Origin: a virus
DNA: 64,000 nucleotides
Virus genome (UHGV): UHGV-0468246
Direction: 5' to 3' (one strand)
The stretch's first letter is position 1; the number at the start of each line of letters is the position of its first letter. The translations under genes and the position numbers were made by a program. The notes under the pieces were generated by a model. That model was not told where the DNA came from, did no database searches, and saw only the letters and a program-made list of their open reading frames with translations. Below, piece by piece: positions 8,798-50,115 of the stretch.

Positions 8798-8840
8798 GTA
8801 AAACAAGAAGTAAAGAGAAAAGTTAAGAAAAGAAATTAAG
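8798..8840 (+). repeat. AT-rich intergenic motif copy, plus orientation (GTAAAACAAGAAGTAAAGAGAAAAGTTAAGAAAAGAAATTAAG)
   Basis: Member of a ~14-copy AT-rich motif family standing out in a 65% GC background. Confidence 0.6.
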
Positions 8841-8842
8841 GC

Positions 8843-9076
8843 TTAACTTGCCAGATTGACGGTTGCATAGAAATGCTCGTCATAATATTCGAGGGTAAAA
8901 TGAAACCCATTCGGCTTGTCGTCGAAAATGAACTCGCAGGTGCCGACGATGTTCGGCTTTGGCTCTGCGAACGCACTAAGAAGCGCCTCGTCCGGGGTCT
9001 CCCCGGTCACGCTGAAGCGATCTAGCGTTTCTCTATTCTCCGTCTTGGTCTTTACTTCGACATTGTAAACGTTCAT
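8843..9076 (-). CDS. Low-GC moron-like small protein (77 aa)
   Basis: Gene and flanks are about 48% GC against ~65% around it. It has its own upstream TTGACC..., an AAGGGAGA ribosome-binding site and an ATG. Confidence 0.5.
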   Translation of the reverse strand: MNVYNVEVKTKTENRETLDRFSVTGETPDEALLSAFAEPKPNIVGTCEFIFDDKPNGFHFTLEYYDEHFYATVNLAS

Positions 9077-9137
9077 CGTTCCATCTCCCTTTGTCGTTGC
9101 TTGCCTAAAATCGGCCTTTCAAAAGGTCAATAGAAAT

Positions 9138-9791
9138 TTACAAATAGCCCTCGATAACGTCCTGTCCGAGCGCGTCGAACAACGCGTCCCAAGCGTCGGC
9201 CCATTCGCCGACCCACGCCGAAGGCTCGCCGCCGATCTTGGCGCAGCGCTCGCACGTCTGGCGCTCGCACTTGATGTCGCGGGCGATGACGTACCTCGCC
9301 CGGTCGTCGAGTGATTCCACGTGCCTCTCGATGAAGCGCGCGCAATCGACCGACACGTGGTTGCCGCGTCCGATGGCGTAGCGCTCGGCGTTGATGCACA
9401 TGTCGGAGAACTCGTTCGCTTTCAGCTCGACGGTCTTTGGGTCGTCCGCGCGCGCGGCCTGCGCCTCCTTCGTGTCAATCCAGACCAAGCACGGCTCGCC
9501 GCCGTCGTCGCTCTTCGGAGAATGGAACGCGCCCGTCATGTCGCAGTGCCCGAAGAAGCCCCAATCGGACACGACGTGCTCCGCATGGGAGCGGTACGCG
9601 TCCTTGACGCGCATGGGCTTCCCGTCGATCTTCACCCTGCGCTTGTCGTCGTCCGTGAGCGCCAGCAGCGCGCCCACCGTGATCTCGCATTCTCCGTCCC
9701 ATAGGTGCTGGTCTTTGATCTTCATGCCCATGCCCTGAACCTTGCCCTTTCCTCGCGCCGATACGCCAGCAGCTCCCTGTGCTGCCAGCAT
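9138..9791 (-). CDS. Hypothetical protein (217 aa or shorter; alternative start MGMKIKDQ at ~9731)
   Basis: ORF. The N-terminal ~20 aa of the track ORF are Gly/Ala-rich and may not be translated. Confidence 0.45.
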   Translation of the reverse strand: MLAAQGAAGVSARGKGKVQGMGMKIKDQHLWDGECEITVGALLALTDDDKRRVKIDGKPMRVKDAYRSHAEHVVSDWGFFGHCDMTGAFHSPKSDDGGEPCLVWIDTKEAQAARADDPKTVELKANEFSDMCINAERYAIGRGNHVSVDCARFIERHVESLDDRARYVIARDIKCERQTCERCAKIGGEPSAWVGEWADAWDALFDALGQDVIEGYL

Positions 9792-9928
9792 TCCTGATAC
9801 TCGACCCGCCTCCCGTAGGAGCGCAGAAGCCGCTCGTGCTCCTTCAGGTCGTCCGGACAGATGTGTCGCCGCTGCGGCCCTCCGGAATCATGACCTTGCA
9901 ATGGCCCTCGTACGCCATTTCCCCCTCC

Positions 9929-10129
9929 TTACGCCGACAGCAGCACGGCCATGACGAACCCGCCGAGCAGGAACGCGACGGCGCACGGCACGACGAACGG
10001 CTCGACCTCCCGCTGCCACGCCTCGCGCCACTCCTGCTCGGTCATGCGCCCCCTGCCGTCCCCGAACTTCCTTGGAACGCGCCTCTGGCGGCTTCTGACG
10101 GCCCTGTGGGCCGAGTTGTCGGTATACAT
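9929..10129 (-). CDS. Small membrane protein (66 aa)
   Basis: C-terminal hydrophobic stretch VVPCAVAFLLGGFVMAVLLSA. Confidence 0.4.
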   Translation of the reverse strand: MYTDNSAHRAVRSRQRRVPRKFGDGRGRMTEQEWREAWQREVEPFVVPCAVAFLLGGFVMAVLLSA

Positions 10130-10196
10130 GGTGTCTTCCTTCCTACGCCCGTCTATAGGGCGTTACGCGAAGCCCTGCGGCTTCATTCTACACGAT

Positions 10197-10240
10197 GTAA
10201 GATAAGAAGTAAAGAGAATAAATTAAGAAAAGAAATTAAG
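10197..10240 (+). repeat. AT-rich intergenic motif copy, plus orientation
   Basis: GTAAGATAAGAAGTAAAGAGAATAAATTAAGAAAAGAAATTAAG. Confidence 0.6.
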
Positions 10241-10357
10241 ATGGGCGCGGGCATGCTGCGTGTCCGAGGAGGGAAAGGCCAATGGATGCCCGTAGGCTGG
10301 GTTCGCCCGCGCCCGCACCGATTGTCTCACGTCCGGGCTGCGGGCGAAAGCCCCGTT

Positions 10358-11116: not shown

Positions 11117-11149
11117 TGCCGCGTCCTCCGTCCGTCGTTCAAAAAAAAC

Positions 11150-11182
11150 GGGCGGCGGCAACCATCCATCAATCCGCCGCCC
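11150..11182 (-). terminator. Hairpin plus T8 terminator upstream of the phosphoesterase gene
   Basis: GGGCGGCGG...CCGCCGCCC stem, followed on the minus strand by TTTTTTTT (plus A8 at 11141-11148). Confidence 0.5.
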
Positions 11183-11774
11183 TTGGGAGCCGCATTGAGC
11201 GCGCGCTGGCTCCCTTCCACTTCCGGCAAAGGCTTCTAAGGTCAAGCAGCCCTACTCCCGTTCGGGAACCCAGCCGGTCGCGGCATCCGCGCTCATGATC
11301 GCCTCCGCCGCGTGCTTTGCGCCCAGCCGCACCTCGATTCAGTGGCGTAGGACTGTGCCTGTCCACCATGCACGAATAGTGCCGCCCGCCCCTATGCCGG
11401 GTCTTTCGCATAGGGTTCGATGGGCGCTCCGCCCCTCCGAACAGAGCGCGCATCGAACCTCATGCCGAAGGGAAGAGCGCGGGACGGCGGAGGAATCGAA
11501 CCGCCTGATCGCCGACCACCTCAATCAAGGCGAACCCGCCCGACGACGCTTCCCGCCCTCAACGTATCGCCCTGCCGTCGCAAGGGGTATCCAGTGGGCA
11601 TCCAACGCCGCATGCGAGCCGTCCCGCTCCCCGCAGGACGCGTTTTCGGGCTTAGGTGACTCACCCTACTTGCATCCCGCTGACAGTGCCGTTCCGGCTA
11701 TTCACAGCCTTGCAGTGAGTGGTCGGCCTGTATGCCGCATCTCAACCGACTTGACCGCAAGGCGACTGCTCGTC

Positions 11775-11849: not shown

Positions 11850-12086
11850 GCGTTTTCAATGTTTCGTCCGGGAGGGTGTACGGCCCTCCCGGCTCCGGGC
11901 ATCCCCGTCGCGCTTGCCCGCTCTCCTCCCTCCACGGGAGGCGCGTACATGGGCGCTCCGAACGCCGTTGGGCGGGCATTGCCCCGCCGCCGCAACGGTA
12001 CGCGTACCTCGCTCCGGCGCGTTCGTCCTTCGTGCGCGCCGCCGAGCGTCTTATCTCGCCGGTGCGTCGCCCATGTTACCACACTT

Positions 12087-12129
12087 CTTAACTCTTGTCT
12101 TAACTTTTTCTTTCTTTTTTTTATCTTAC
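12087..12129 (-). repeat. AT-rich intergenic motif copy, minus orientation, with a TGTGGTAACAT extended -10-like box at 12073-12083
   Basis: Minus-strand reading GTAAGATAAAAAAAAGAAAGAAAAAGTTAAGACAAGAGTTAAGAAGTGTGGTAACATGG. Same architecture as the copies at 19928, 25001 and 29121. Confidence 0.55.
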
Positions 12130-12138
12130 AAAAGAAAG

Positions 12139-12156
12139 GCCCGCGATTGCGGGCCG
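12139..12156 (-). terminator. Hairpin GGCCCGC-gatt-GCGGGCC with a T-rich tail, next to an AT-rich motif copy
   Basis: Stem-loop followed on the minus strand by TTTCTTTTGT. Confidence 0.5.
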
Positions 12157-12167
12157 TGGCTTCAGTC

Positions 12168-12245
12168 CGGGAGGGCGGGAATCGAACCCGCACATGCTGT
12201 ACCTGTTATGGCGCGCCCAGTGCTCTGCCGTTGAGCTACCTCCCG
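12168..12245 (-). ncRNA. tRNA-like element with acceptor stem, D arm and T arm but no canonical anticodon stem
   Basis: CGGGAGG/CCTCCCG acceptor pairing, TA at positions 8-9, D arm GCTC-AACGGCA-GAGC, T arm GCGGG-TTCGATT-CCCGC. The ~30 nt in between (containing the GGCGCGCC palindrome) cannot form a 5-7-5 anticodon arm by my reading. CCA is not encoded. Confidence 0.4.
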
Positions 12246-12426
12246 ATGCATGGGAAGCGCCGGAGGAAGGTGCAATGCGCACCGTTCGGGCGCTTCCCAA
12301 GTTCGCTGCGGGTGCCCTCGCCGTCCGCAGTCAGGATGCCCACCGATGATGACTTTCGGCATCCTCCCTCGCCCCTCTGCGCGGCCCGTTCGCAGCGGCC
12401 CGTGCTCGGAACCCGCGTTCGGGAAA

Positions 12427-12649
12427 CTACCGGATAACGGCGTCCTCCCACCGCGTACCCCGCTCGCCTCCCCTGCGAAAGTCGGCCACGGGGGTGCCTT
12501 CGTGGATGCGCGCGAGCGTCACGTCCGATTCGTCCATAGCCCTAGCCATCGAAGGCCTAGCGCCACATCCCAAGGCATCAGCTTCGTCGCTGACGGAAAG
12601 TCGAGGGCGGGGAGCTGCGGGCCGACGATGCGACGGCGCGCCCCTCATC
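12427..12649 (-). CDS. Possible small Arg-rich protein (74 aa), or part of a structured non-coding region
   Basis: AAAGGA ribosome-binding site plus ATG at 12649, immediately after palindrome copy 2. Low confidence: the surrounding 12250-12700 is GC-rich and may be non-coding RNA. Confidence 0.2.
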
Positions 12650-12672
12650 CTTTCGGGCAGAACGGCGCAACC

Positions 12673-12688
12673 TCGATTAAATAATCGA
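12673..12688 (-). promoter_or_regulatory. 16-bp palindrome TCGATTAAATAATCGA (copy 2) inside the tRNA / non-coding region
   Basis: Perfect inverted repeat, followed on the minus strand by GGTTGCGCC...AAAGGATG. Confidence 0.5.
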
Positions 12689-12756
12689 CATGTCGCATCA
12701 ACCGCCCTCGGCCTTCCGTCAGCGGGCACCTTTCGATGCCGCGCTGTTTGTCCGTA

Positions 12757-12995: not shown

Positions 12996-13409
12996 TCAAC
13001 TTTCTGCCAAGCACATCGCGAGCGTGCAAGATGTTCTCTCTCGACCGGTGCACCATTCAAGGTTCTCGACAGCGTTGTTGGCCTTGTCGCCGTCGATGTG
13101 GTTCACTTGCGGCTTGCCATCGTCGTTCGGTATGAACGCCTCTGCGACAAGCCTGTGGATGCACTTTGTTTCCGTTGCGCCCATGTTGCTCAACAGAACA
13201 AGATGGTATCCGTATGTGTTCACTCGGTCGGCAAGAATCTTTTCCGATTGCATGCGATGGAGGCTTCCATCCGCCCTGTAAATAGGGCGTTCGAGACTTT
13301 TGACGCGACCGCAACTGGATATTTGATAGCACCCTTCGCAGCCTGCTATGCCGCGCCATTCCTCCATCGCATGCACCTTCTCCACCTTGCGTTGCCTCGC
13401 AACGGGCAT
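12996..13409 (-). CDS. HNH homing endonuclease (NUMOD4 plus HNH_3 type)
   Basis: EWRGIAGCEGCYQISSCGRVKSL matches a NUMOD4 motif and VNHIDGDKANNAVENLEW matches an HNH motif. Gene GC is ~52%, below the genome, and it lies next to the tRNA genes. Confidence 0.8.
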   Translation of the reverse strand: MPVARQRKVEKVHAMEEWRGIAGCEGCYQISSCGRVKSLERPIYRADGSLHRMQSEKILADRVNTYGYHLVLLSNMGATETKCIHRLVAEAFIPNDDGKPQVNHIDGDKANNAVENLEWCTGRERTSCTLAMCLAES

Positions 13410-13420
13410 CCTATCACGTG

Positions 13421-13510
13421 TTAAGAAAAGAAGTCAAGTGAAAAGTGGGAAATATGAAGGGTATATGTAAAACAAGAATGTAAGAGAATAATTTAAGAAA
13501 AGAAGTTGAG
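13421..13510 (+). repeat. Cluster of AT-rich motif copies in the divergent intergenic region between the HNH gene and the plus-strand island
   Basis: GTTAAGAAAAGAAGTCAAGTG...GTAAAACAAGAATGTAAGAGAATAATTTAAGAAAAGAAGTTGAG, followed by a TGTAACATGG -10-like box near 13527. Confidence 0.55.
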
Positions 13511-13638
13511 ATTAAAACCGATAGCGTGTAACATGGACGGCATCGGAGCGAACGAAGCGAAGGAGCGACCATGAAGACGAACGAGACCGAGGCGCGCGAG
13601 ATGGCCGACGAGGGGATGCCGGTCGAGACGCGAAGATC

Positions 13639-13851
13639 GTGTCGAGCGACCTGCTGCCCGGCTGCTGGGACGTGGTGCTGAACGGCGAGAGGAAGGGCAC
13701 CATCGGCATCGACCGCCAAGGCGAGTTCAACGTGTCCATGAAGGACGGCATCGAAACCTACGGCGAGGGATACCGCCTCGATTCTCTGCGCAAGGCGAGC
13801 GAATGGGCGATAACCCATCTCGCGCACGAGGAGATAGGGAAGGGGTGGTAG
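13639..13851 (+). CDS. Hypothetical protein (70 aa, GTG start)
   Basis: First gene of a three-gene plus-strand island, downstream of the AT-rich promoter region. Confidence 0.35.
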   Translation: MSSDLLPGCWDVVLNGERKGTIGIDRQGEFNVSMKDGIETYGEGYRLDSLRKASEWAITHLAHEEIGKGW

Positions 13852-13853
13852 CC

Positions 13854-14315
13854 ATGGAGTGGTACGGAAGCGTCGAGAACCGCATGGACGAGGGCAAGCA
13901 GGTCGGCGCGCTGCGCGTGGGCATGGGCGCGACGGAGATGATGTACTCCGACCGCGAGCCGTACACGGTGCAGAAGGTCGTCAGCCCCTCCCGCGTGATC
14001 GTGACCAAGGACAAGTGGACGCGCGTCGATTCCAACGGGCGAAGCGAGTGCCAAGAGTACGCTTGCGAGAGCGTTCCGCTGACCGTCGGCGAGAAGAAGC
14101 GGCGCTGCACGCACATGCTCTTCATGCAGATCGGAACCGACAGATGCGACGACAGGGGCGAGACGGACGGCTGCGGCGGCTGCAAGTGGCTCAGGGAGAC
14201 CGCGCCAACCAACGGCGTGACGCTCGTCAAGACCAAGCGGGGGTGGAAGGCGCTCGGGCAAGACCGACGGTTCGCGCTGGGCATCCGCGAGAAGTGCGAA
14301 GACCCGACGTTCTAG
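13854..14315 (+). CDS. Hypothetical Cys-rich protein (153 aa, MEWYGSVENRMDEGK...)
   Basis: ATG at 13854. The track ORF 13803..14315 starts earlier in the same frame. Contains CQEYAC...C..C..C motifs. Confidence 0.45.
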   Translation: MEWYGSVENRMDEGKQVGALRVGMGATEMMYSDREPYTVQKVVSPSRVIVTKDKWTRVDSNGRSECQEYACESVPLTVGEKKRRCTHMLFMQIGTDRCDDRGETDGCGGCKWLRETAPTNGVTLVKTKRGWKALGQDRRFALGIREKCEDPTF

Positions 14316-14329
14316 GAAGGAGCAGGGAG

Positions 14330-14623
14330 ATGATCTACCAGTTGGAGGCCATGCACGACGCGAAGAAGTCGTTCTACGGGAAGGCGCTCGTGGAATCGGG
14401 GGGGGGCACCCTGACGCTGTACAGCTACGGCGCTAAGGTGGCCGAGACGCAGGGGCAGGGCCGCATCGCGCTCTACCCGGACGCGGACTACAGCCCGACC
14501 ACGCGCAGGCACGTGAAGGAGTTCGTCAAGCAGCAGGCCGGGAAGTCCATATCGACCGAGGAGCTGCGCGCCGTCGTCGATGGGCGCATGCGCTTCGAGG
14601 ACGCGGGCCAGCCGCTCGCGTAG
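14330..14623 (+). CDS. Hypothetical protein (97 aa) with an internal G9 tract
   Basis: AGGAGG ribosome-binding site plus ATG at 14330. The G9 at 14398-14406 encodes ESGGGT. In frame with the spurious long ORF 13859..14623. Confidence 0.5.
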   Translation: MIYQLEAMHDAKKSFYGKALVESGGGTLTLYSYGAKVAETQGQGRIALYPDADYSPTTRRHVKEFVKQQAGKSISTEELRAVVDGRMRFEDAGQPLA

Positions 14624-19883: not shown

Positions 19884-19927
19884 AACGGCCTCCTTTCGTC
19901 CTCGTGCGATCTTACCACATTCCTTCA

Positions 19928-19975
19928 CTGTTGTCTTAACTTTTTCTCTTAATTCTTTTTTTACTTTCGTCTTTC
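19928..19975 (-). repeat. AT-rich motif copy, minus orientation, with a TGTGGTAAGAT extended -10-like box (19909-19919) and a terminator hairpin (20008-20029)
   Basis: Minus-strand reading: hairpin GGGGCGGCC-atcg-GGCCGCCCC, then TTTGCTTTTCC, then GTAAAAAAAGAATTAAGAGAAAAAGTTAAGACAACAGTGAAGGAATGTGGTAAGAT. Confidence 0.55.
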
Positions 19976-20555
19976 CGCATCCTGTTGAAGAGCGGTGGAA
20001 AAGCAAAGGGGCGGCCCGATGGCCGCCCCTCTCAATCGCCCTGAAGCCCCCCCCCGGCGCTGCTCTTCCAGCGCCTCGTCCACGCGCCTCTCGATGCGGC
20101 CTTCCACGAGCCAGCACACGACCTCCGGCACCGTGAACGGATTGGAGGCGTGCCCTCCCGTAACCTCGTCGTAGACCTTGGGCACGATGTCGAGCAGCAC
20201 GCTGTAGTCGTGCAGCTCCGCAAGCACCTTCTCCTTCGAGAGCGCGCCGTCCTCGTCGGTCACGAGCCGCAGCCAGAACTCCTCGTCGAGCTCGCGCCTT
20301 TCGCCCCGCTTCTTCTCCGCGACCGCGCGCCCGGTCGTGTGCTCCGTTCCGGGGAACGGCTCGAACGTCACCGTCCCGTCGCCCGACCCGTGCAGCACCG
20401 TCGCGCCCTCGTAGCAGCCGTTGCACACGTCCATGTGCGCGCCGAGCGCGTACGGCTCCGTCTTCTGGCCCCATCCGTTGCGGTCGAGCCATACGGGCAC
20501 CACAACGCCGACGCGGATGTCTCCGTGGCCGAACTCGCCTCCGCACACCTCGCAC
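19961..20555 (-). CDS. Hypothetical protein (C-terminal part of track ORF 19961..20950; start uncertain) with a G9 coding tract
   Basis: CEVCGGEFGHGD...EVVCWLVEGRIERRVDEALEEQRRGGASG. The poly-G (plus C9 at 20047-20055) encodes RRGGAS near the 3' end. Confidence 0.4.
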
Positions 20556-20979: not shown

Positions 20980-21206
20980 GCCTTTCTCCGCACCACGGGC
21001 AGAACGCCATGCCCTGCCCTTTGAGAACGTTCACCGAATCTAAGCACTCGCAATCATAGTCGAAGTCGATGTCCCGGAGGCCGAGTACCCATTGCCCGTC
21101 GGGAAAGGACGAACGCCCCTCATCGGGCCGGTATCTCCGGAGCGAGAAGCCCTTCGGCATCTTCCGGCACCGGTGCGTCTCGAAACCTGCATGTCGCGGG
21201 TCTCCG

Positions 21207-21415
21207 TCAGTCATAGCTCCACTCCCCCAACTCCACTTCCTCTCCGCAATGCGGGCACTCCACGCTCCCCCAGTCGTCCTGCCAGCATTCCGGCTCGTCA
21301 ACGTCCTCGAACGGCACGCCGGTCTGCCATCTGCAATGCGGGCACGTGAACGTGATGTCCACCGGCGCGCTGTTGATCGTGAAGTCGGCCTTCTCCTCGC
21401 GGCTCGTCATATCCT
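21207..21415 (-). CDS. Small zinc-ribbon protein (~69 aa, MTSREEKADF...)
   Basis: CPHCRW...CPHCGEE motif. C-terminal part of the track ORF 21207..21860. Confidence 0.4.
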
Positions 21416-21853
21416 TCCACCGTTCCTCTCCCTCGCGGCCTTTGCGCGAATCTCGGCGTACATGCGCTCCTCGTCCTCGCGCAGTATGCGGTAGGCGAGC
21501 CGCAGCTGTTCGAGGTCGAAGTAGCCGAAATGGCACTCCTCGACGGGTATGCCCATCCTGCCCGCCAGCCATTCGTACTGGCGCGTACGCTCCTTGCGCT
21601 TGTTCGGAGCGCCCAGCCACCGCCTGTCGAACAGCCGGTGGCAGAACTGCTTGCCGAGCCTCATGCGGTCGTCGGCCAGAAGCCCGAACGCCTCCTTCGG
21701 CCTCGGCACGTGCGTCCCGACGTACGCGCCGCACTCCGTGCAGCGGTAGCACCACCCGCTGCCGCGCTTGATGCCGTACACCTTCCTGTTGGGCACGTAC
21801 TCGACGCGCCCGCCGCACAGGTTGCACACGGTCGGCCTCTTCGGCGGAATCAT
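21407..21853 (-). CDS. Hypothetical zinc-finger protein (148 aa)
   Basis: CNLCGG...CYRCTECGAY motif. Confidence 0.45.
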   Translation of the reverse strand: MIPPKRPTVCNLCGGRVEYVPNRKVYGIKRGSGWCYRCTECGAYVGTHVPRPKEAFGLLADDRMRLGKQFCHRLFDRRWLGAPNKRKERTRQYEWLAGRMGIPVEECHFGYFDLEQLRLAYRILREDEERMYAEIRAKAARERNGGRI

Positions 21854-22650
21854 GCGCCAAGCTCCTTCCTGAACGCGCGGGATACCGCCTCGAACAGTAT
21901 GCCGTCGAGGAGCGCGTCCACGCTCTCGTCCGTTCTAAGGCCCCGTTCCTCGCAGAACGCGTCCGCCTTCGAGGAGATGCGCCTGCACGCCTCCTGCGCC
22001 GTCTCCGTGGCCTCTGCGGCGGTCATGCCGTCCCCGTCCCTCTTCACGCGAAGCAGCTCCGGGTGTCCCGACATGTCCAAGCACTCGCCGTAGGGCGCTC
22101 CCGCGACGTATCGGTCGATCATGATGTCGAGGCGCAGGATGTGGGAGAGCTGCTTCGGGTCGTAGCCGTAGCGCTCTATCCAAGGCATGCGGCTCGGGTA
22201 CTCGTGCGTGAGCGCGTTCAGCTTCTCGTGCGCCATGCCCTTCATGCACTTGACCGCCCGACCGGGGCAGTAGCGCGCGATCTCCTCGCGGCGGCGCAGC
22301 AGCTCCATCCACAGGTCGGCGTAGTCGTGGTTGAACAGGTGCCACTCCGTGAACAGAATCTCAACGAAGTTCACGTTCTGCTTGCGGAACGTCTTGAAGT
22401 ACTCGCGGATGTCCTTCACGTCGCAGTGCTCGCCGTTGCCCATCACGTGGGTGCGGCTCACCGCCTGACGGTTCAGCACGACATCCTCGAAGCATGGCAG
22501 CACCAGCAGCTTGCTGTCGATGTCGCTGCCCTCGTCGGAAAGCCCGTAGTTCTGCGAGCCTTGCAGGCAGATGGCGAACCAGTCGCCGCGCGCGTTTTTT
22601 TTAGATTCCTCCAAGTGCTCCGCGAGCCTCGCCGTCGGCAGGTCTTCCAT
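21850..22650 (-). CDS. Nucleotidyltransferase-fold protein (266 aa)
   Basis: GSQNYGLSDEGSDIDSKLLV fits the GS...D.D motif of DNA polymerase beta-type nucleotidyltransferases. Confidence 0.5.
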   Translation of the reverse strand: MEDLPTARLAEHLEESKKNARGDWFAICLQGSQNYGLSDEGSDIDSKLLVLPCFEDVVLNRQAVSRTHVMGNGEHCDVKDIREYFKTFRKQNVNFVEILFTEWHLFNHDYADLWMELLRRREEIARYCPGRAVKCMKGMAHEKLNALTHEYPSRMPWIERYGYDPKQLSHILRLDIMIDRYVAGAPYGECLDMSGHPELLRVKRDGDGMTAAEATETAQEACRRISSKADAFCEERGLRTDESVDALLDGILFEAVSRAFRKELGA

Positions 22651-22828
22651 ACTCTCTCCTCCTATCGTTCCAGAAGCGGACGGCGCGCTCGGGGTCGTTC
22701 AGGAAGCCCGTCTGGTTGCCGCACGCCTTGCAGCGCACGAACCACCTTGGCGGCTCCGTCCGGCCCGTCGCGTAGAGCGCCGCGCCGCCGCCGCATCCGC
22801 ATCGCTCTATTCTACTGGTAGATGTCAT
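22601..22828 (-). CDS. Lar-family restriction alleviation protein (75 aa)
   Basis: RCGCGGGAALY...WFVRCKACGNQTGF...AVRFWNDRR matches the Lar zinc-ribbon pattern. Confidence 0.6.
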   Translation of the reverse strand: MTSTSRIERCGCGGGAALYATGRTEPPRWFVRCKACGNQTGFLNDPERAVRFWNDRRREYGRPADGEARGALGGI

Positions 22829-23741
22829 AGTTCTCGCAGATTTCGCTCCAATTTTGGATAAGCCCCTGATAGCCGTCGCGCAGGTCGCGCAGCGTGCCCT
22901 TCTCCTCGTTCTCGCGCATCAGCACGTCGCGGTACAGCTCCTCGTCCCGGTACATCCGGACGTTCTCGTCTATGAGGCGGCTGATGACGCTGGGGTCGAG
23001 CGCGTCAAGCTCCCAGCATTCGTAGCCGAACCGCTCGATGTAGCCCTGCGCGCGGCTGTCCGACAGCTTCGTCGGGTTCGGCGGAGGCCCGAACTCCTCG
23101 ATCTGGTCGAGGTTCAGCGCGAGGCGGCGGAACTCAACGTCGTCGGCACTGAACAGCTCCAAGCGCGCCACGATGTCGCGGCTCATGTCCTTGCCGCTGG
23201 GGTCGTGGTCGCCGAGGTGCAGCAGCACCGCGTGCTGCCCAGCGTCGCAGCGCCGCTTCAGGCGCATGGCCGCTCCCCACAGCTCGCTCTGGCTGGTGTA
23301 GCCACGGCACGAGAAGCACGCAACGTCCAGCTTGTCGCTGATCTGCTCCACGATGCCTATGAGCGCGTCCTTCTCCACCCACACCTCGACGTAGTTCTCC
23401 TGCCCCTCCCAGTAGTCGATGTGGTACTGGCGGGCTATCGCGTCGATGATCTCCTGCGGCTCCTCCCAGTGCGGGCGGCGGCGCAGGTTGCGCGTGCGGT
23501 CTTCGATGGCGTGCCAATCGACGAGGCCCGCCAAGCGCGCGTCGTTGATGAGGTTGCCGAGGTTCTTGTAGCTGCGGATGTTGTTCGGGATGATGTCGCG
23601 CGACACCATCTGGTAGTAGAGCTGGCGCAGCGTCAGGCCGTACCCCTGCGCCTCGTACTCGGCCACTATGCCGTTGGCTATGCCGATGAGTTCCAGCTTG
23701 TCGTCGCGGAACGTCTTCTCGATGTACGCTATCTTAGGCAT
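22812..23741 (-). CDS. Spo11 / topoisomerase VI subunit A-like protein (mini-A, 309 aa): CAP tyrosine motif plus Toprim
   Basis: LRQLYYQMVS matches the R(D/Q)(I/L)YY catalytic-tyrosine motif. VEVWVEKDALIGIV carries the Toprim glutamate (vvEKd). HLGDHDPSG matches the Toprim DxDPxG motif. It overlaps the stop of the upstream GHKL gene by 8 nt. Confidence 0.6.
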   Translation of the reverse strand: MPKIAYIEKTFRDDKLELIGIANGIVAEYEAQGYGLTLRQLYYQMVSRDIIPNNIRSYKNLGNLINDARLAGLVDWHAIEDRTRNLRRRPHWEEPQEIIDAIARQYHIDYWEGQENYVEVWVEKDALIGIVEQISDKLDVACFSCRGYTSQSELWGAAMRLKRRCDAGQHAVLLHLGDHDPSGKDMSRDIVARLELFSADDVEFRRLALNLDQIEEFGPPPNPTKLSDSRAQGYIERFGYECWELDALDPSVISRLIDENVRMYRDEELYRDVLMRENEEKGTLRDLRDGYQGLIQNWSEICENYDIYQ

Positions 23742-24948
23742 CCTCGCCCTCCTTCTCCAAAAGCCCGTCTATCTCGTCGCGTATGAGGTGCATGCCGAAG
23801 AACCGCAGGTCGTCCGAGTTGTCGATGATCTCGCGAAGCTCGGCGCGCGCACGCTTCGACAGGCGCGGCTGCCCTTTGAGCCAGACGAGAATCTTCTTGT
23901 AGTCGCTCTTGCCGAAGGCGTTGACTGCGGCCTCCCTGCTGGCGTTCGACGACACCTTCGCCTCCAAGTCCTCGAACTCGTCGAGCGCGTCGTCGGCGAT
24001 GGCGATTATCTTGGAGACGATCTTGCTCTCCTCGTGGAACGCGCTCGCCTCGGCGCTGCCGCCGAGAACCTGCCACATGCCCTTCGTCCCGACGAACGTG
24101 CCCTCGTCAAGCCCGTTCTTCTCGAAGTAGTAGCGCTTGAAGCCCTCGCACTGGTCTTCGTCTATCTCGTCGAGGACGGCGCTTGCGTCGGACACGTCCA
24201 GATGCTTCTCGCCGAGCGAGTTGACGAGCAGGCTCACGTCCCCGCACGACGTGAGGGCGCGGGCCGTAAGCTCCTTCAGCTCGTAGTGGTTGATCGCCTT
24301 GCGGTCTCGGTCGAGGCTCACGTGCTCCGGCAGGAAGTCGTAGCCGTACGCGAAGCCGGTGTCCTCCTGCACGAACAGGCCGCCGACGTAGAACTTGCCC
24401 TTGTAGCGGCTCTCCAACATGATCGTCCCGTACTCGCTCTCGCGCTTCGCGCCGATGTCGCGGCCCATGAAGCGTTCGAGGGCTATGAACCTGTCCCCGA
24501 AGGAGCGCATCATGGCGGGCGAGATGCCGCCGATGCGGAACTCCGTGAACTCGCCGCCCGGAACGCCGGTCTCCTCCACGTCGATCTGCAACGATTCCTC
24601 GCCGAACGTCTCGGACAGGCGGAACTCCGGTGTCCAAGTCTCCGCGTCGGTGACGACCTTCACCGGCTTGCGCTCGCGCGTCAGCACCAGAAGCGCCAGC
24701 TTGTATCCCTCGCCGTACTTCCCGATGTAGCGCTCGTCGTCCTTGCCCGATTCGCCGAGCAGGAGCGTCGATGTCTTCAGTCGCGCGCCGTCGGTGAGGA
24801 TGGACAGCGTTTCGCGGTCGTACGACACGGACACCTCCGCCCCGTCCGCCTTCTGGTCGATGGCGTTCTGCAAAATCTCGCGGACTGCCTCCTCCACGCC
24901 CCAGCCGCTCACGTACTTGGGCGACAGGCTCAACTCGATGGTCTTCAT
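23734..24948 (-). CDS. GHKL (Bergerat-fold) ATPase, topoisomerase VI subunit B-like (404 aa)
   Basis: N-box EILQNAIDQ and G2 box IGKYGEGYKLAL. Lies immediately upstream of, and translationally overlapping, the Top6A-like gene. Preceded by ribosome-binding site, palindrome, -10-like box, AT-motif and terminator. Confidence 0.55.
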   Translation of the reverse strand: MKTIELSLSPKYVSGWGVEEAVREILQNAIDQKADGAEVSVSYDRETLSILTDGARLKTSTLLLGESGKDDERYIGKYGEGYKLALLVLTRERKPVKVVTDAETWTPEFRLSETFGEESLQIDVEETGVPGGEFTEFRIGGISPAMMRSFGDRFIALERFMGRDIGAKRESEYGTIMLESRYKGKFYVGGLFVQEDTGFAYGYDFLPEHVSLDRDRKAINHYELKELTARALTSCGDVSLLVNSLGEKHLDVSDASAVLDEIDEDQCEGFKRYYFEKNGLDEGTFVGTKGMWQVLGGSAEASAFHEESKIVSKIIAIADDALDEFEDLEAKVSSNASREAAVNAFGKSDYKKILVWLKGQPRLSKRARAELREIIDNSDDLRFFGMHLIRDEIDGLLEKEGEDA

Positions 24949-24962
24949 GGCCCTCCTTGCTC

Positions 24963-24978
24963 TCGATTAAATAATCGG
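24963..24978 (-). promoter_or_regulatory. 16-bp palindrome copy 4 (TCGATTAAATAATCGG) between the TGnTAAGAT -10-like box (24988-24998) and the ribosome-binding site of the GHKL gene
   Basis: Read on the minus strand: CCGATTATTTAATCGAGAGCAAGGAGGGCCATG. Confidence 0.6.
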
Positions 24979-25000
24979 CCTTGACCCATCTTACCACAAG

Positions 25001-25050
25001 CCTTAACTCTTGTCTTAACTTTTTCTTTCTTTTTTTATCTTACAAAAGAA
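25001..25050 (-). repeat. AT-rich motif copy, minus orientation, beside the terminator hairpin at 25053-25075
   Basis: Near-identical to the copy at 12087 (CTTAACTCTTGTCTTAACTTTTTCTTTCTTTTTTTATCTTACAAAAGAAA). Confidence 0.6.
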
Positions 25051-25052
25051 AA

Positions 25053-25075
25053 GGGGAGGGCTTGTGGCCCTCCCC
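25053..25075 (-). terminator. Hairpin GGGGAGGGC-ttgt-GGCCCTCCCC with a T-rich tail on the minus strand
   Basis: Stem-loop followed on the minus strand by TTTTCTTTTGT. Confidence 0.55.
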
Positions 25076-25076
25076 G

Positions 25077-25407
25077 TCACCACGCCGTCTGCCTGCGGAA
25101 CGGGCATCTCGTCCGAGAGCACGACTTCCTCGCCACCTCGACGGCGCAGCACGTGTTCGCCTGATCTCCGCACATAGGGGACGCCACGTGCCAGCCGGGG
25201 CCTAGAACCGTTTCGGCCAGCCGGTCGAGGGCGGCCTGCGCGTCGGTCGGCTGCGGCATGATGCCGTAGTCCCCGCCGTTGCCGGTCGCCCCGCTTTCGT
25301 CAACGAACGAGAGCGTGATCTGATACCCTCTGTTTATGTTGTCCATCTGCTGGTCGAAGTCCTTCTTCTCCATCTTGGTCGGGAACTTCGCCTCCATGCT
25401 CCCGCAT
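25077..25407 (-). CDS. Hypothetical protein (~110 aa, MEAKFPTKMEKK...)
   Basis: C-terminal part of the track ORF 25077..25616 from its first plausible ATG. Confidence 0.4.
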
Positions 25408-25414
25408 GCCGCCG

Positions 25415-26118
25415 TCACCCTTCGCATGCCCCTCCTATCTCCTCCAACGTCCTGCGCTTCATGTTGCCAAGCACCTCCTCCATGGCGACGAGCCGCCGCC
25501 AGCAGTCTGGCAGGTTCTCCTTGATCGCGCGCAGTTCCTTCTGGTTCTTGTTCTTGCAGCACCAGCACGACACCCTGTCCAAGATGTCGTACAGGCGCAC
25601 GCCGTCCTGCTCCCACTCATGGCCGTGGGCGTAGCACGCGGCGAGGCAGTCGGCCTCGCGCATGCCCCAGTCAGCGAGCGGGAAGCGCTTGTAGGGCTTG
25701 CGCTCCTTTTCGAGGCGCGCCGTCTCGTCTGCGGCTATGCCGACGTACACGGTCGCCCCCCCCAGCTCCCTCTCCGCATGGCGGTCTATCGCCCGCAGCT
25801 TCTCGGTCGTGCCCCAGCGGCACGGGCCGCCGCACCAGCCGTAGCCGTGCTTGTGGACTTCGCCGGTCTTCCGGCTTTTGACCGGGCGGCAGAACATGCT
25901 CCACCAGAACGGGTCTTTGGGGCGCAGCTCGACGTAGCGGATGCCGTTCTCGCGCAGCAGCGGCAGCATGCGGTCGCGCTCGGCGTAGATCGCGTCGAAC
26001 TCCATGCCCGTGTCGTAGAAGACAACCTCGTCGAGCGGCATGCCGCGCTCGATCAGGCCGTGCAGCATGGCGAGGCTGTCCTTGCCCCAGCTGACGCTTG
26101 CGATGCAGCGCTTCATGG
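25415..26118 (-). CDS. PAPS reductase / PP-loop ATP pyrophosphatase family protein (~234 aa)
   Basis: Probable start MKRCIASVSWGKDSLAM. The SWGKDS motif matches the PP-loop SGGKDS, followed by a CWCC cysteine cluster. An internal G8 tract (plus C8 at 25756-25763) encodes LGGAT. Confidence 0.65.
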
Positions 26119-28908: not shown

Positions 28909-28923
28909 TCGCCGTCTCCTTTC

Positions 28924-28939: not shown

Positions 28940-29120
28940 GCCGTCGTGCTCGCCTTCGTCGGCCACAAGGCACTTGTCGTCCCCCGTCGGCGACGTAGAC
29001 GAGGAACATGGCGCTCGCGCGCAATACCTCCTTCTCGTCCCCGTCGCCCATGCCCGTGATGCTGATCTCCAAAACGGTCTCCTTCCGCTCGGTTTCGCGA
29101 TACGGTCATCTTACCACAAG

Positions 29121-29155
29121 TCTTACACTTTTGTCTTAACTTTTTCTTTTACAAA
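29121..29155 (-). repeat. AT-rich motif copy, minus orientation, with a TGTGGTAAGAT -10-like box at 29108-29118
   Basis: Minus-strand reading GTAAAAGAAAAAGTTAAGACAAAAGTGTAAGACTTGTGGTAAGATGACCG. Confidence 0.55.
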
Positions 29156-30660: not shown

Positions 30661-30672
30661 CGTCGTTTCCCT

Positions 30673-31330: not shown

Positions 31331-31346
31331 TCGATTATTTTATCGA
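31331..31346 (-). promoter_or_regulatory. 16-bp palindrome copy 7 (TCGATAAAATAATCGA on minus). The 35-nt cassette is near-identical to copy 1.
   Basis: Read on the minus strand: TTGTGATAGTCTGTTCCCAGTCGATAAAATAATCGAGAAGGAGCAAAGACCATG. Confidence 0.6.
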
Positions 31347-31375
31347 CTGGGAACAGACTATCACAAATATGCGAT

Positions 31376-31410
31376 TGTTAAAAGAAGAATTAAGAAAAAA
31401 ACTAAGGTTT
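31376..31410 (+). repeat. AT-rich motif copy, plus orientation
   Basis: GTTAAAAGAAGAATTAAGAAAAAAACTAAGG. Confidence 0.5.
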
Positions 31411-31814: not shown

Positions 31815-31845
31815 TGTAAGACAAGAGTAAAGAAATGAAGTGCGT
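31815..31845 (+). repeat. AT-rich motif copy, plus orientation
   Basis: GTAAGACAAGAGTAAAGAAATGAAG. Confidence 0.45.
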
Positions 31846-32426: not shown

Positions 32427-32494
32427 CGTTTTTCATAGTCCGTCGTTCTCGCAAGGTGGATTGCCTTTGACAGCATACCACTTCCCCGTGCTTT

Positions 32495-32527
32495 TGTAAA
32501 ATAAGAAATTAAGAGAACAGTTAAGAC
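32495..32527 (+). repeat. AT-rich motif copy, plus orientation
   Basis: GTAAAATAAGAAATTAAGAGAACAGTTAAGAC. Confidence 0.45.
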
Positions 32528-41808: not shown

Positions 41809-41911
41809 CGGCTCCCGCCTTCCGCTCCTCCTCGGCGACCTTCACCGCCGACGGCTTCTCCGCACTGTACTTCCTGAACGCCATTTCCGTCTCCTTTCGT
41901 CGGGGCGGCAA
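41720..41911 (-). CDS. Small acidic protein (63 aa). Overlaps the J-domain gene in another frame; doubtful.
   Basis: ORF with an upstream AGGAGA. Overlaps 41089..41808. Confidence 0.2.
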   Translation of the reverse strand: MPPRRKETEMAFRKYSAEKPSAVKVAEEERKAGADGEGEGSEQVVDLDESAAPEAAPEGEDRP

Positions 41912-41923
41912 TCATACCATGGC

Positions 41924-41957
41924 TGTAAGCCAAAAGTTAAAACAAAAAGTTAAGAAT
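41924..41957 (+). repeat. AT-rich motif copy, plus orientation
   Basis: GTAAGCCAAAAGTTAAAACAAAAAGTTAAGAATACG. Confidence 0.45.
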
Positions 41958-42884: not shown

Positions 42885-42900
42885 TCGATTATTTTATCGG
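42885..42900 (-). promoter_or_regulatory. 16-bp palindrome copy 9 (TCGATTATTTTATCGG) upstream of the primase
   Basis: Read on the minus strand: CCGATAAAATAATCGACGATGCGGCATAAGAGGAGG. Confidence 0.55.
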
Positions 42901-42902
42901 AT

Positions 42903-42945
42903 GTTAAAGAAAAAGTAAAGCAAGAATTAAGACAATAATGAAGAT
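42903..42945 (+). repeat. AT-rich motif copy, plus orientation
   Basis: GTTAAAGAAAAAGTAAAGCAAGAATTAAGACAATAATGAAG. Confidence 0.5.
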
Positions 42946-47845: not shown

Positions 47846-47873
47846 GTCATATGTTAAACGGTCTCGCGACCGT

Positions 47874-47909
47874 TGTAAAGATAAAAGTTAAGAATAAAAG
47901 TTAAGACTT
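47874..47909 (+). repeat. AT-rich motif copy, plus orientation
   Basis: GTAAAGATAAAAGTTAAGAATAAAAGTTAAGAC. Confidence 0.5.
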
Positions 47910-48249
47910 ACTGCACGACATCCCATGTCTCGCCGCCGTCTGCGGACTGCGTGATGAAGGTGCTCGGCGGGAAGTTCGCGACGGCGTAGTCAACCATCGC
48001 CTTCAGCTTGGACGGGTCTCGGTCGAATATCTCGAAGCCGATCTGCGGGGCGCTCCCCGACTGCGCCATCACGGCCAGAAGCTCCAAGCCGGTGCAGGTG
48101 ATGCAGTCCCACGAGAAGGCCAGCCAGCCGATGCCGTGGTTAAGCTCTACGGCGCGGGGGTCGTCCGTCCACACGTAGTTCGTCCTCATGTTCTCCGGCG
48201 TGCGCGCCAGCCACACGTTGATGCGCGCCGCTACGAATCTGCGTCCCAT
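47908..48249 (-). CDS. Hypothetical protein (113 aa)
   Basis: ORF. Confidence 0.4.
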   Translation of the reverse strand: MGRRFVAARINVWLARTPENMRTNYVWTDDPRAVELNHGIGWLAFSWDCITCTGLELLAVMAQSGSAPQIGFEIFDRDPSKLKAMVDYAVANFPPSTFITQSADGGETWDVVQ

Positions 48250-48258
48250 TCCCGCTCC

Positions 48259-50019
48259 TTAAAAGCCGAGTAAGTATTCCATGTCGTTCATCATATCATT
48301 CTCGCCAGCCGCTTCATACTCGCCTATGCCCATCTCCTGCGCCAGCGCCTTGCGGCCCGCCATGGTCTCCTCTATGCGCTCCTCGATTGTGTCGCGCGTC
48401 ACGAAGCGGTATATGGTCACGCAGTCGTGCTTGGAGCTGATGCGGTGGATGCGGTCGCTGCGCTGCTGGTAGCGCGAATGCAGCGGCGGCGTGTCGTAGT
48501 GGAGCAGGTAGCGCCCCTCCGGAAGGTCTATGCCCTCGCGCCCAGCGTCGGACATGAGCATGAGGTTGTAGGTGCTCCCCTCTCGGAAAGACCGCTCGAT
48601 CACGCCGCGCTGCGCGTCCGTCTGCCCTCCCATGTACATGAGCGGGCGGTAGCGCTCCAAGTGCTTCGACAGCGGTATGAGGCAGTTGTGCGTGTGCTGG
48701 GCGAACACCACCATCTTCTCGCCGCCTCCCATGATCTGGTCTACCAGCTCCTCGGTCGCCTTCAGCTTCTCGCTGTTCTTAGACCCCGCAAGCTCCGGCG
48801 CGTGGCGCTGCACTATCCGGCGAATCTCGCGCAGCTGCTCGTCCCAGAACGGGTTGTCGCCTTCGTAGCGCCACACGTCCTCCATCAGAAGAACCTCCGG
48901 CATCCTGCACACGCGCTGAAGCATGAGCATGAACAGCGAGCGCTGCTTCTCGTCCCGGTCTACGCTGCCGCCGTACGCGGCGATCTCGTCGTACAGGGCG
49001 CGCTCCGGCGGCGACAGCTCCAAGTCAAGCACGATCTCCTGACGCTTGGGGAACTCCGCCGCTATCTCCGGGTTGGTCTTCTCCGCCATGAACACGCGGG
49101 GAGCCGAAAGCAGCCCCATAACGTCGAGGTTCTGGAAGCCGAGGTAGCGGTTCCACATGTCGCGCTCGCCGTTGCCGTACGTGAAGTAGTGCTCGAAGTC
49201 CTTCACGGTGCCGTAGATCGAGGCATCGAGGATGCGCCATTCGTTGTAGTAGTCCTCCGGGCTTTTCTCCAACGGCGTGGCGGTCAGGCCGCACTTGAAC
49301 CTGATGTCGAGCGTCTTTTCCAGCTTCTTGAACTTCTGGTGGCGGGGCCGCGCTCGGCTCTTCAACCGCTGAACCTCGTCGTACACGAAGAAAAGGTGCT
49401 TCCCGCGCAGGGCGCGCTCTATGAAGTTCCAGTCCTTCGTGTTGGTTCGGTCGTAGTTGACGACCCATATGTCGGAATCGTCGGTGTTGTACCACGCTTG
49501 GCGCTTCGCGGGCTTCGCGTTGCGGTTGACCGTGCCGACCGTCAGGCTCGTCGCCTTCTCCAACCACGGCACCCACTGCTTGACGAGCGGGGCCGGGCAG
49601 AACACCACGATCTTATCGACGGTGCCACGGTCGAACTCGCGCACGGCGAGCATCGTCCCCATGGCCGTCTTCCCCGTCCCGCACGAGCATATGAGCATGG
49701 TGTTGGGAACTCCGTCGAGCGCGTGGCCGCATCTGTTCTGAAACCTCTTCAGCTCGAACGGGAGCGTGAGGGACGGAGATTCGATGGGCGATTCGTCGCG
49801 CACCTGCCGCAAGCGCTCCGCCGCCCGCTCCGTGAACATGACCTCCATCGTCCTCGCCATGGTCTGGCACAGCTCGACGATGCGGTCGGAGTTCTTCAGC
49901 AGATGGTCGCGGGCGAGTATCCCGCTGTGGACGAACGGCATCAGCGCCGCCTCGTCGCCGTTGATCTTGAACTGCCCTCGGAACTCCTCGGACAGGTCAA
50001 CGCAGACCGTCTCTTTCAA
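48259..50019 (-). CDS. SNF2 / DEAD-like superfamily 2 helicase
   Basis: Walker A CSCGTGKT, DEAH-like YDEVQ, motif III LTATP, and C-terminal helicase motifs (...RIHRI...). Confidence 0.75.
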   Translation of the reverse strand: MKETVCVDLSEEFRGQFKINGDEAALMPFVHSGILARDHLLKNSDRIVELCQTMARTMEVMFTERAAERLRQVRDESPIESPSLTLPFELKRFQNRCGHALDGVPNTMLICSCGTGKTAMGTMLAVREFDRGTVDKIVVFCPAPLVKQWVPWLEKATSLTVGTVNRNAKPAKRQAWYNTDDSDIWVVNYDRTNTKDWNFIERALRGKHLFFVYDEVQRLKSRARPRHQKFKKLEKTLDIRFKCGLTATPLEKSPEDYYNEWRILDASIYGTVKDFEHYFTYGNGERDMWNRYLGFQNLDVMGLLSAPRVFMAEKTNPEIAAEFPKRQEIVLDLELSPPERALYDEIAAYGGSVDRDEKQRSLFMLMLQRVCRMPEVLLMEDVWRYEGDNPFWDEQLREIRRIVQRHAPELAGSKNSEKLKATEELVDQIMGGGEKMVVFAQHTHNCLIPLSKHLERYRPLMYMGGQTDAQRGVIERSFREGSTYNLMLMSDAGREGIDLPEGRYLLHYDTPPLHSRYQQRSDRIHRISSKHDCVTIYRFVTRDTIEERIEETMAGRKALAQEMGIGEYEAAGENDMMNDMEYLLGF

Positions 50020-50050
50020 CGCGCCTCCATCTCCCTTGGTTTTCCTCTAG

Positions 50051-50086
50051 TGTAAGACAAGAAGTTAAGAAAATCAAGTAAAAGAA
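50051..50086 (+). repeat. AT-rich motif copy beside the terminator hairpin at 50087-50115
   Basis: GTAAGACAAGAAGTTAAGAAAATCAAGTAAAAGAA, then GAACCCCCTCGG-attg-CCGTAGGGGGTTC. Confidence 0.55.
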
Positions 50087-50115
50087 GAACCCCCTCGGAT
50101 TGCCGTAGGGGGTTC
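50087..50115 (-). terminator. Rho-independent terminator after the tail gene
   Basis: 11-bp stem hairpin, followed on the minus strand by the T-rich TTCTTTTACTTGATTTTC. Confidence 0.6.

Follow-up and report, generated by a model that had tools for sequence, protein, structure and literature searches.

A family of AT-rich intergenic repeats associated with putative promoters in an Eggerthella lenta phage lineage

Phage genome and layout of the window

The DNA analyzed here was a 64,000-nucleotide stretch of the virus genome UHGV-0468246 (referred to as the window), in which short intergenic gaps contain 15 copies of a purine-rich, AT-rich element in both orientations. On balance, we favor reading these elements as the upstream halves of phage promoters that would be used by the host sigma-A (sigma-70-type) RNA polymerase and would serve non-structural genes. 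The window has a G+C content of 63% and is 98 to 99.9% identical, in reverse orientation, to Eggerthella phage LE2-3 (MW679026.1), which is 111,961 bp long and has E. lenta DSM 2243 as its host. This is the only known ~112-kb E. lenta myovirus lineage, and near-identical contigs are present in human-gut metagenome assemblies. With the LE2-3 annotation mapped over, nearly all window genes lie on the minus strand. The window is laid out as follows:

1-21009: corresponds to LE2-3 record 21583-582
21010-28584: 7.5-kb strain-specific segment; LE2-3 has 581 bp in its place
28585-30744: corresponds to LE2-3 record 111961-109799
31072-64000: corresponds to LE2-3 record 109480-76556
2735-4761, plus strand: gene block
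~13571-14623, plus strand: gene block

Open reading frames (ORFs) in the 7.5-kb segment gave weak Pfam matches to HATPase_c_3, Tad8 (Thoeris inhibitor), PAPS_reduct, and TerY_C, and the segment probably has an accessory or counter-defence role, with part of it under a putative promoter at element copy 25001.

Sequence and abundance of the repeat family

Each copy is 22 to 47 bp long, comprises 2 to 4 units, and reads, in order, TGTAAGA, an A-rich stretch, AAAGTTAAGA, and TTAAG. Copies of both orientations aligned over the whole element (MAFFT) and yielded a single consensus, TGTAAAAnAAGAAnnTAAGAnAAAAGTTAAGAnAAnAAnnTAAGA. Thirteen of the 14 AT-rich islands in the window (≥73% A+T over 30 nt) were occupied by the motif, and a degenerate additional copy was located at 31815. 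The pattern TTAAGAAAAGAA, with up to 2 mismatches, had 19 matches, compared to 0.69 expected from shuffles. On both strands of the 64 kb, 19 of 20 TTAAGA occurrences lay inside elements, as did 12 of 13 occurrences of GTTAAGA. The 15 elements, 558 nt in total, contained TTAAGA 19 times, compared to 0.78 times with per-element shuffling, and none of 2,000 shuffles reached 19. Because this excess survives shuffling within each element, the copies represent a sequence family and not mere AT-richness. The units conform to (G/T)TAA(G/A)A, and their spacing peaked at 12 to 13 nt (17 of 32 intervals). Selection against TTAAGA outside the elements was considered and rejected (3 occurrences observed, compared to 3.4 to 4.5 expected under Markov models).

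The elements are a true repeat family of 15 copies, alignable in both orientations. An earlier reading of the sequence alone (the sequence-only reading) had proposed such a family with about 14 copies; the motif was present at every coordinate that it listed, and the family stands with a count of 15, as two copies sit at 13419-13512. The same reading had allowed that the motifs might be AT-rich by composition and not alignable, which the alignment and the shuffles showed not to be the case.

One-sided −10 boxes and predicted promoters

A TAnnnT hexamer (≥4 of 6 matches, TGn counted) was found within 32 nt on the gene-proximal side of 13 of the 15 copies and on the opposite side of only 1 of 15, and 5% of random 38-nt windows contained such a −10 hexamer. 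A sigma-70 consensus scan of the whole 64 kb returned 13 matches. Ten coincided with element copies; these share the strand of the downstream gene and have 17- to 18-nt spacers. The −10 boxes lie in the GC-rich flank, outside the AT-rich element, and for this reason are not an artefact of composition. Start codons lay ~20 to 55 nt from the −10, and Shine-Dalgarno sites were present in the interval.

The window and LE2-3 are too similar for a general conservation analysis, and searches for relatives of intermediate divergence suited to a conservation test, made with primase, DnaE, and helicase, returned none. Primase matched only 25 to 29% identical proteins in IMG/VR, on contigs lacking the motif; DnaE matched LE2-3 among GenBank phages, with the next matches at ≤32% identity; and helicase matched only 99 to 100% identical strains in metagenomes. 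The sole diverged intergenic gap between the window and LE2-3, at 32411-32520, contained 15 differences in 111 nt, of which 5 fell in the 17-nt spacer of the predicted promoter and 10 in the 5′ untranslated region. None fell in the element, TTTACA, TGG-TATGCT, or the first 25 bases of the predicted transcript, and the spacer length stayed at 17 nt.

In the full LE2-3 genome, 14 of 17 AT-rich islands contained the motif, and 13 of these 14 lay in the non-structural arc (record 90.4 kb via the origin to 22.8 kb), which holds SNF2, helicase, primase, the region upstream of DnaE, small ORFans, and tRNAs. The remaining motif island, at record 50809, lies within the 23- to 90-kb structural block. 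This copy (record 50809-50848, outside the window) is an A-rich-sense candidate promoter copy inside the coding sequence LE23_73, annotated as an antirestriction protein; if translated, it is a Lys-rich linker. Either the promoter is internal to this gene or the coding sequence is misannotated.

Structural and lysis genes were instead preceded by −10-only boxes, such as TGG-TAGAAT-GTCC, that lack the AT-rich element. Boxes of the form TG(G/C)-TAGAAT-GTC(C) with no −35 were located in the window upstream of endolysin and tail genes, at 6075-6095 (6080, endolysin) and 60900-60915 (60905), minus strand, and in LE2-3 at record 15495, 75156, and 79639. These boxes may be a middle or late promoter class, and the presence of the element at one set of genes and of −10-only boxes at the other would fit different temporal promoter classes.

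No phage RNA polymerase is annotated in LE2-3. A Pfam scan of 40 early or accessory ORFs revealed no sigma, RNA polymerase, helix-turn-helix, or other DNA-binding domains, a weak negative given that these ORFs are mostly ORFans.

A-rich-sense copies and terminator-promoter cassettes

The A-rich strand is the sense strand in five copies, four on the minus strand (12087, 19928, 25001, and 29121) and one on the plus strand (13466-13534). Common to the four minus-strand copies is AAAAAGTTAAGACA-N17/18-TGTGG-TAAGAT or TAACAT, with GG after it in most cases; their AAGACA (4 of 6 −35 matches) lies 17 to 18 nt before the −10. On the plus strand, the copy lacks TGTGG and shows TTGAGA and TAACAT separated by a 17-nt spacer. 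Translation signals (a Shine-Dalgarno site and a start codon) come 20 to 45 nt downstream; at copy 12087, tRNA-Arg comes ~220 nt downstream. The candidate promoters and their surroundings are as follows:

12073..12155, minus strand: terminator-promoter cassette located after an odd tRNA and ~220 nt upstream of tRNA-Arg; hairpin 12138-12155 followed by TTTCTTTTGT; element 12086-12131; AAGACA 12096-12101, 17-nt spacer ending TGTGG, −10 TAACAT 12073-12078, then GGG
19909..20029, minus strand: terminator-promoter cassette; hairpin 20008-20029 followed by TTTGCTTTT; element 19934-19968; AAGACA 19932-19937, 17-nt spacer, TGTGG-TAAGAT with the hexamer at 19909-19914; gene start 19883
24988..25075, minus strand: terminator-promoter cassette within the 7.5-kb strain-specific segment; hairpin 25053-25075 followed by TTTTCTTTTG; element 25002-25045; AAGACA 25011-25016, 17-nt spacer, TGTGG-TAAGAT with the hexamer at 24988-24993; gene start 24948
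29108..29153, minus strand: short element copy; AAGACA 29132-29137, 18-nt spacer, TGTGG-TAAGAT with the hexamer at 29108-29113
13466..13534, plus strand: element copy, A-rich sense; TTGAGA 13506-13511, 17-nt spacer, −10 TAACAT 13529-13534; plus-strand genes downstream, with a ribosome-binding site and ATG at 13571

Canonical terminators (a hairpin followed by a U-run) were found directly upstream of copies 12087 and 25001 and 40 nt upstream of copy 19928; at 29121 an upstream terminator was weak or absent, with none convincing. The predicted intrinsic terminators at 12138-12155, 20008-20029, 25053-25075, and 50085-50117 had folding energies of −17 to −29 kcal/mol (z scores, −3 to −4). At the other 11 copies, no GC hairpin was directly followed by a U-run. 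The sequence-only reading had described the minus-oriented copies as terminator-promoter cassettes of fixed architecture. The succession of terminator, A-rich tract, TGTGG-TAAGAT or TAACAT, and gene was supported, and the terminator proved to be a canonical hairpin with a U-run at three of the four copies.

Promoter-early stem-loop (PeSL) cassettes of T4-type phages, reportedly the subject of work by Arbiol and colleagues in 2010, are said to combine a stem-loop with a sigma-70-like early promoter between small accessory ORFs. The copies described here are similar in that a stem-loop and promoter are repeated between small accessory ORFs, in near-identical copies, one of them in a strain-specific segment. 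They differ in that a hairpin is present in only 4 of 15 copies, strain breakpoints do not fall at copies, and the sequences are unrelated. That the copies are mobile or recombinogenic regulatory cassettes of this kind, mainly mediating the shuffling of accessory genes, seems to us improbable. Such a role would account for the match between copies 25001 and 12087 over ~51 nt, interrupted only by a 1-nt A-run indel, with unrelated hairpins and flanks, and for the ~90% identity of copies 8797 and 10196, −10 region included. However, the three breakpoints between the window and LE2-3 (21009/21010, 28584/28585, and 30744-31072) are 0.3 to 1 kb from the nearest copies, which is not the pattern of mosaic junctions at cassettes that marks PeSL-type recombination, and neither terminal inverted repeats nor target duplications were found. 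Mobility of this kind would, moreover, be compatible with promoter function.

T-rich-sense copies

The T-rich strand is the sense strand in 10 copies (9 to 10), in which the reversed units read TCTTAAC, TCTTTAC, or TCTTACA. This strand provides −35-like hexamers (TTTACT, TTAACT, TTGACT, and TTTACA) 17 to 18 nt upstream of the sense-strand −10. The sigma-70 consensus scan, which was blind to the motif, placed minus-strand promoters at eight of these copies, with the −35 inside the element and the −10 in the GC-rich flank. The copies, all with the A-rich strand on the plus strand, are listed below with their candidate minus-strand promoters; the positions of scan matches, which have the hexamers and spacer of the same line unless stated, are in parentheses:

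8797..8840, A-rich strand plus: −35 TTTACT 8809-8814, 17-nt spacer, −10 TAGAAT 8786-8791, then GGG; followed on the minus strand by an LE23_27 homolog, start 8740 (8814)
10196..10241: −35 TTTACT 10208-10213, 17-nt spacer, −10 TAGAAT 10185-10190; followed on the minus strand by an LE23_23 homolog, start 10129 (10213)
13408..13450: copy in a divergent control region; TTGACT 13432-13437, 18-nt spacer, TGA-TAGGAT 13408-13413, for an HNH gene (13437)
31337..31406, element 31376-31406: two candidate minus-strand −10s, TGA-TAGTCT 31355-31360 and TAAAAT 31337-31342, the latter inside a CGAT...ATCG motif; downstream minus-strand gene start 31315 (overlapping pair at 31366)
31815..31836, plus strand: short, degenerate copy flanked by no −10 box; function doubtful
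32472..32526: terminal TTTACA 32495-32500 as −35, 17-nt spacer, TGG-TATGCT 32472-32477 (TTTACA-17-TATGCT, 32500)
41911..41955: TTAACT 41935-41940, 18-nt spacer, TGG-TATGAT 41911-41916; gene start 41884 (TTAACT-18-TATGAT, 41940)
42891..42945: TTTACT 42914-42919, 17-nt spacer, −10 TAAAAT 42891-42896; primase gene start 42858 (42919)
47851..47907: terminal TTTACA 47874-47879, 17-nt spacer, −10 TAACAT 47851-47856; gene start 47812 (47879)
50049..50117, element 50051-50086: copy directly after the minus-strand terminator hairpin 50085-50117, whose U-tail it supplies; weak promoter match TTGATT 50072-50077, 17-nt spacer, TACACT 50049-50054; minus-strand SNF2 gene start 50019

Two other roles had been suggested for plus-oriented copies, as the U-rich tails of terminator hairpins and as promoters of antisense, plus-strand transcripts, including a small RNA starting at ~10241 beside copy 10197. 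That these are the chief functions of the plus-oriented copies is very unlikely. Strong hairpins do lie directly before copy 50051 and before the LE2-3 copy at record 22757, and the TAAGAT-GGGCG at the end of copy 10197 is similar to the −10 and discriminator of the A-rich-sense copies. However, the U-tail role held at 50051 only: 9 of the 10 T-rich-sense copies have no hairpin in contact with the T-run, and most begin at the stop codon of the upstream gene. Antisense firing was not supported, with no −10-like hexamer on the plus side of 10 of the 11 plus-oriented copies. The small RNA beside copy 10197 likewise found no support: the TAAGAT at the end of the element has neither a TGn nor a −35 at 16 to 19 nt, no plus-strand terminator or Rfam match was found downstream, and the neighboring 112-nt GC-rich stretch folds only ~2 standard deviations better than shuffles on either strand (z score, approximately −2). 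This stretch is more simply the 3′ untranslated region of the minus-strand phosphoesterase gene. Apart from three tRNAs, no known RNA families were found in or beside the elements in the Rfam search.

Comparison with known promoter and operator systems

The early promoters of phage T4 are the textbook extended-consensus early promoters of large lytic phages. The resemblance to T4-type early promoters would lie in many near-identical host-sigma-70 promoters throughout the early region with a structural block lacking them, an A/T-rich UP-like tract upstream of the −35, an extended −10 (TGn), and short 5′ untranslated regions. In contrast to them, the elements described here contain a 12- to 13-bp repeat of (G/T)TAA(G/A)A used both ways relative to the −10, have weaker hexamers (AAGACA and TAAGAT), and belong to a phage of a high-G+C Coriobacteriia species. 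With regard to the UP element, positions −46 to −38 of copy 12087 read AAGAAAAAG, which matches the proximal-subsite consensus (AAAAAARNR) at 8 of 9 positions; the composition and position of the element fit an UP element, and the conserved TTAAGA units exceed what one needs.

Extended −10 promoters of actinobacterial sigma-A follow the Corynebacterium-type pattern tgngnTAnnnTgg, and the Gram-positive −16 region reads TRTGn. The boxes TGTGG-TAAGAT-GG, TGTGG-TAACAT-GGG, and TAGAAT-GGG fit this pattern position by position. No TTAAGA repeat array is known from actinobacterial host promoters of the extended −10 type.

In cluster A mycobacteriophages, stoperators are single 13-bp asymmetric repressor sites repeated between genes. 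A temperate phage's immunity repressor binds them, and their orientation with respect to transcription is constant. Like stoperators, the elements are many short asymmetric motif copies in short intergenic gaps of an actinobacterial phage. Unlike them, they occur in mixed orientation (5 A-rich sense and 9 to 10 T-rich sense), form arrays, and are tied to a −10, and no repressor was found. A stoperator model fails because orientation relative to transcription is not single. A fixed activator of the T4 MotA-box type also fails, since the last unit of T-rich-sense copies is either 3 to 7 nt or 17 nt from the −10.

Apart from chance matches, searches for the element elsewhere returned only this lineage. 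Exact matches to the 14-mer AAAAGTTAAGACAA in IMG/VR were chance matches only, and among GC-rich contigs the composite patterns AAGTTAAGAC-N14-17-TGGTAASAT and AAAGTTAAGA-N4-5-AGTTAAGA were found in the same phage lineage only. In bacterial genomes, the composites gave 6 chance matches, all in AT-rich metagenome-assembled genomes, and the composite A-rich-sense pattern was found in no Coriobacteriia genome. Carriers of the element in IMG/VR and metagenomes were all 99 to 100% identical strains. A host-wide motif was rejected: in PMBT5, an unrelated E. lenta phage, TTAAGA arrays are absent and the AT-rich sigma-70-like regions are ordinary. Judged from these searches, the element is specific to this phage lineage. 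The promoter-associated repeat family is real and previously undescribed, and it is an ordinary kind of element.

Proposed function of the elements

The family, its periodicity, the one-sided −10 boxes, hexamer spacing, terminators, and genomic distribution were all read from sequence, and the following model is built on them. Each copy would be an AT-rich island of 12- to 13-bp units with a −10 on exactly one side, facing the next gene; the −10 would be TAnnnT, often preceded by TGn or TGTGn and followed by GG. In A-rich-sense copies, a UP-like A-tract at about −40 to −60 would be followed by AAGACA at −35, 17 to 18 nt before TGTGG-TAAGAT or TAACAT, and recognition would occur mostly via an extended −10 of the actinobacterial type. 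In the T-rich-sense copies, one unit would serve as the −35 hexamer 17 to 18 nt before the −10, and the other units would form a T-rich upstream tract. RNA polymerase would start at these sites, with the AT-rich tract acting via the C-terminal domain of the alpha subunit or as a −35 surrogate. Terminators fused to three A-rich-sense copies and to copy 50051 may insulate units from upstream transcription. The promoters would serve small early-type ORFs, tRNAs, and replication genes and are predicted to be early or middle.

Several points weigh against promoter function. The match is to the general sigma-70 and actinobacterial pattern and not to a consensus specific to E. lenta, and AT-rich DNA is biased toward AT-rich consensus hexamers, although the −10 boxes lie outside the AT-rich part. 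In the A-rich-sense copies, only 8 of 12 hexamer positions match the consensus, so they would lean on the extended −10. In LE2-3, the TAACAT at 13529-13534 that forms the putative −10 of the plus-strand copy reads TGACAT. Copies 31815 and 50051 have no good −10. Depending on orientation, the TTAA cores lie either at approximately −24 and −36 or at approximately −46 and −59, unlike a simple −35 or UP prediction, and the use of one asymmetric module both ways at different registers is poorly explained. The conserved G positions exceed the requirement of an UP element, and the retention of specific G, T, and A positions and of the 12- to 13-bp period is likewise poorly explained. A literature search found no transcript 5′-end data for this phage or close relatives; the E. 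lenta phage of a 2026 preprint is a different one, of 44 kb.

A different account of these features is that the TTAAGA units are a binding array for a dedicated phage or host nucleoid protein (an activator, shut-off repressor, or anti-silencer), such that the −10s are real and the element is an operator or enhancer. Although unlikely in our judgment, this account is given some weight because the conserved positions, the period, and the two-way use are ill explained by a promoter alone. Conservation of G, T, and A positions beyond AT-richness, the regular 12- to 13-nt period, and the lineage specificity of the element are consistent with a bound protein, and use in either orientation at variable register to the −10 fits such a protein better than a fixed RNA polymerase contact. 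Against it, the 40 scanned ORFs contained no DNA-binding or sigma domain (again a weak negative), most T-rich-sense copies already score as complete sigma-70 promoters without a further factor, and a direct-repeat period of 12 to 13 bp is off the helical repeat. There is, accordingly, a small chance that the array is an orientation-independent site for an unrecognized protein, encoded by an ORFan early gene or by the host, that activates or shuts off the ~15 promoters in concert; if so, it would be an enhancer- or operator-like system undescribed for phages of Coriobacteriia.

Drugs and bile acids are metabolized by the gut actinobacterium Eggerthella lenta, a species of medical relevance for which few genetic parts are available. 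If the elements act as promoters of the host polymerase, ~15 compact phage promoters, some with matched terminators, would be candidate strong expression cassettes for E. lenta, and their positions give the first predicted transcription-unit map for the ~112-kb E. lenta phage lineage. The occurrence of one asymmetric AT-rich module in both orientations is unusual and could inform the study of upstream promoter DNA in high-G+C bacteria. The interest is otherwise modest, the main use being the transcription map and a source of E. lenta genetic parts.

Other features of the window

A second motif, CGAT-WAWW-TAATCG(AG), with the palindromic core CGAT-N6-ATCG, was found in 9 copies in the window, compared to 0 expected, and in 15 copies in LE2-3. 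The 14-mers in the window are located at the following positions:

8141, 12674, 24964, 28925, 29337, 31332, 39690, 42886, and 61350: CGAT...ATCG motif

In most cases the motif immediately precedes a Shine-Dalgarno site, 15 to 30 nt before the start codon, and some copies fall within a coding sequence. At copies 25001 and 31376 the motif follows the −10, and at copy 42903 the −10 lies inside it. It may act as the operator of a dimeric regulator, form an RNA hairpin, or belong to another type of promoter.

The tRNA gene at 12165-12246 (minus strand), next to the cassette of copy 12087, was assigned an 8-nt anticodon loop by ARAGORN, with the anticodon "cgcc" and type unknown; its Rfam tRNA score was 48.8 bits, and it is annotated as tRNA-Cys in LE2-3. 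The phage encodes an RtcB RNA ligase (LE23_42, outside the window). Around the three tRNAs are GC-rich stretches without annotated minus-strand genes:

11117-11773: 657 nt
11851-12162: 312 nt, including the ~220-nt leader between the putative 12073 promoter and tRNA-Arg
12247-12426: 180 nt
12550-12755: 206 nt

No Rfam family matched these stretches, which could be structured non-coding RNAs or processed spacers.

Upstream of the SNF2 gene, at 50120-50168 (minus strand), a TATAAT box directly after the stop codon of the upstream gene is followed by CCATCTCCTTG and then by the terminator hairpin. CCATCTCCTTG is complementary to the ribosome-binding site of SNF2 downstream, CAAGGGAGATGG, and the region could be a small leader RNA or an attenuator.

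Four paralogous plus-strand genes in the window (2655-4290), annotated as structural or tail-fibre genes in LE2-3, encode products that start with MAxLKY, and each is preceded by CTTGACAT-N-C9/10-(A/T)GTTACGAT. These upstream regions read as a TTGACA −35 and a TGT-TACGAT extended −10, with a 19- to 20-nt spacer that contains the poly-C run:

2681-2690, plus strand: poly-C tract
3185-3193, plus strand: poly-C tract
3740-3748, plus strand: poly-C tract
4242-4250, plus strand: poly-C tract

The window contains 12 G/C homopolymers of 8 to 10 nt. Of the tracts it shares with LE2-3, at least 5 are not of the same length in both (C10 versus 9, C9 versus 8, G9 versus 8, G10 versus 9, and C9 versus 5). 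The poly-C tracts look like slipped-strand phase-variable promoters or ribosome-binding sites, with homopolymer sequencing error as the alternative.

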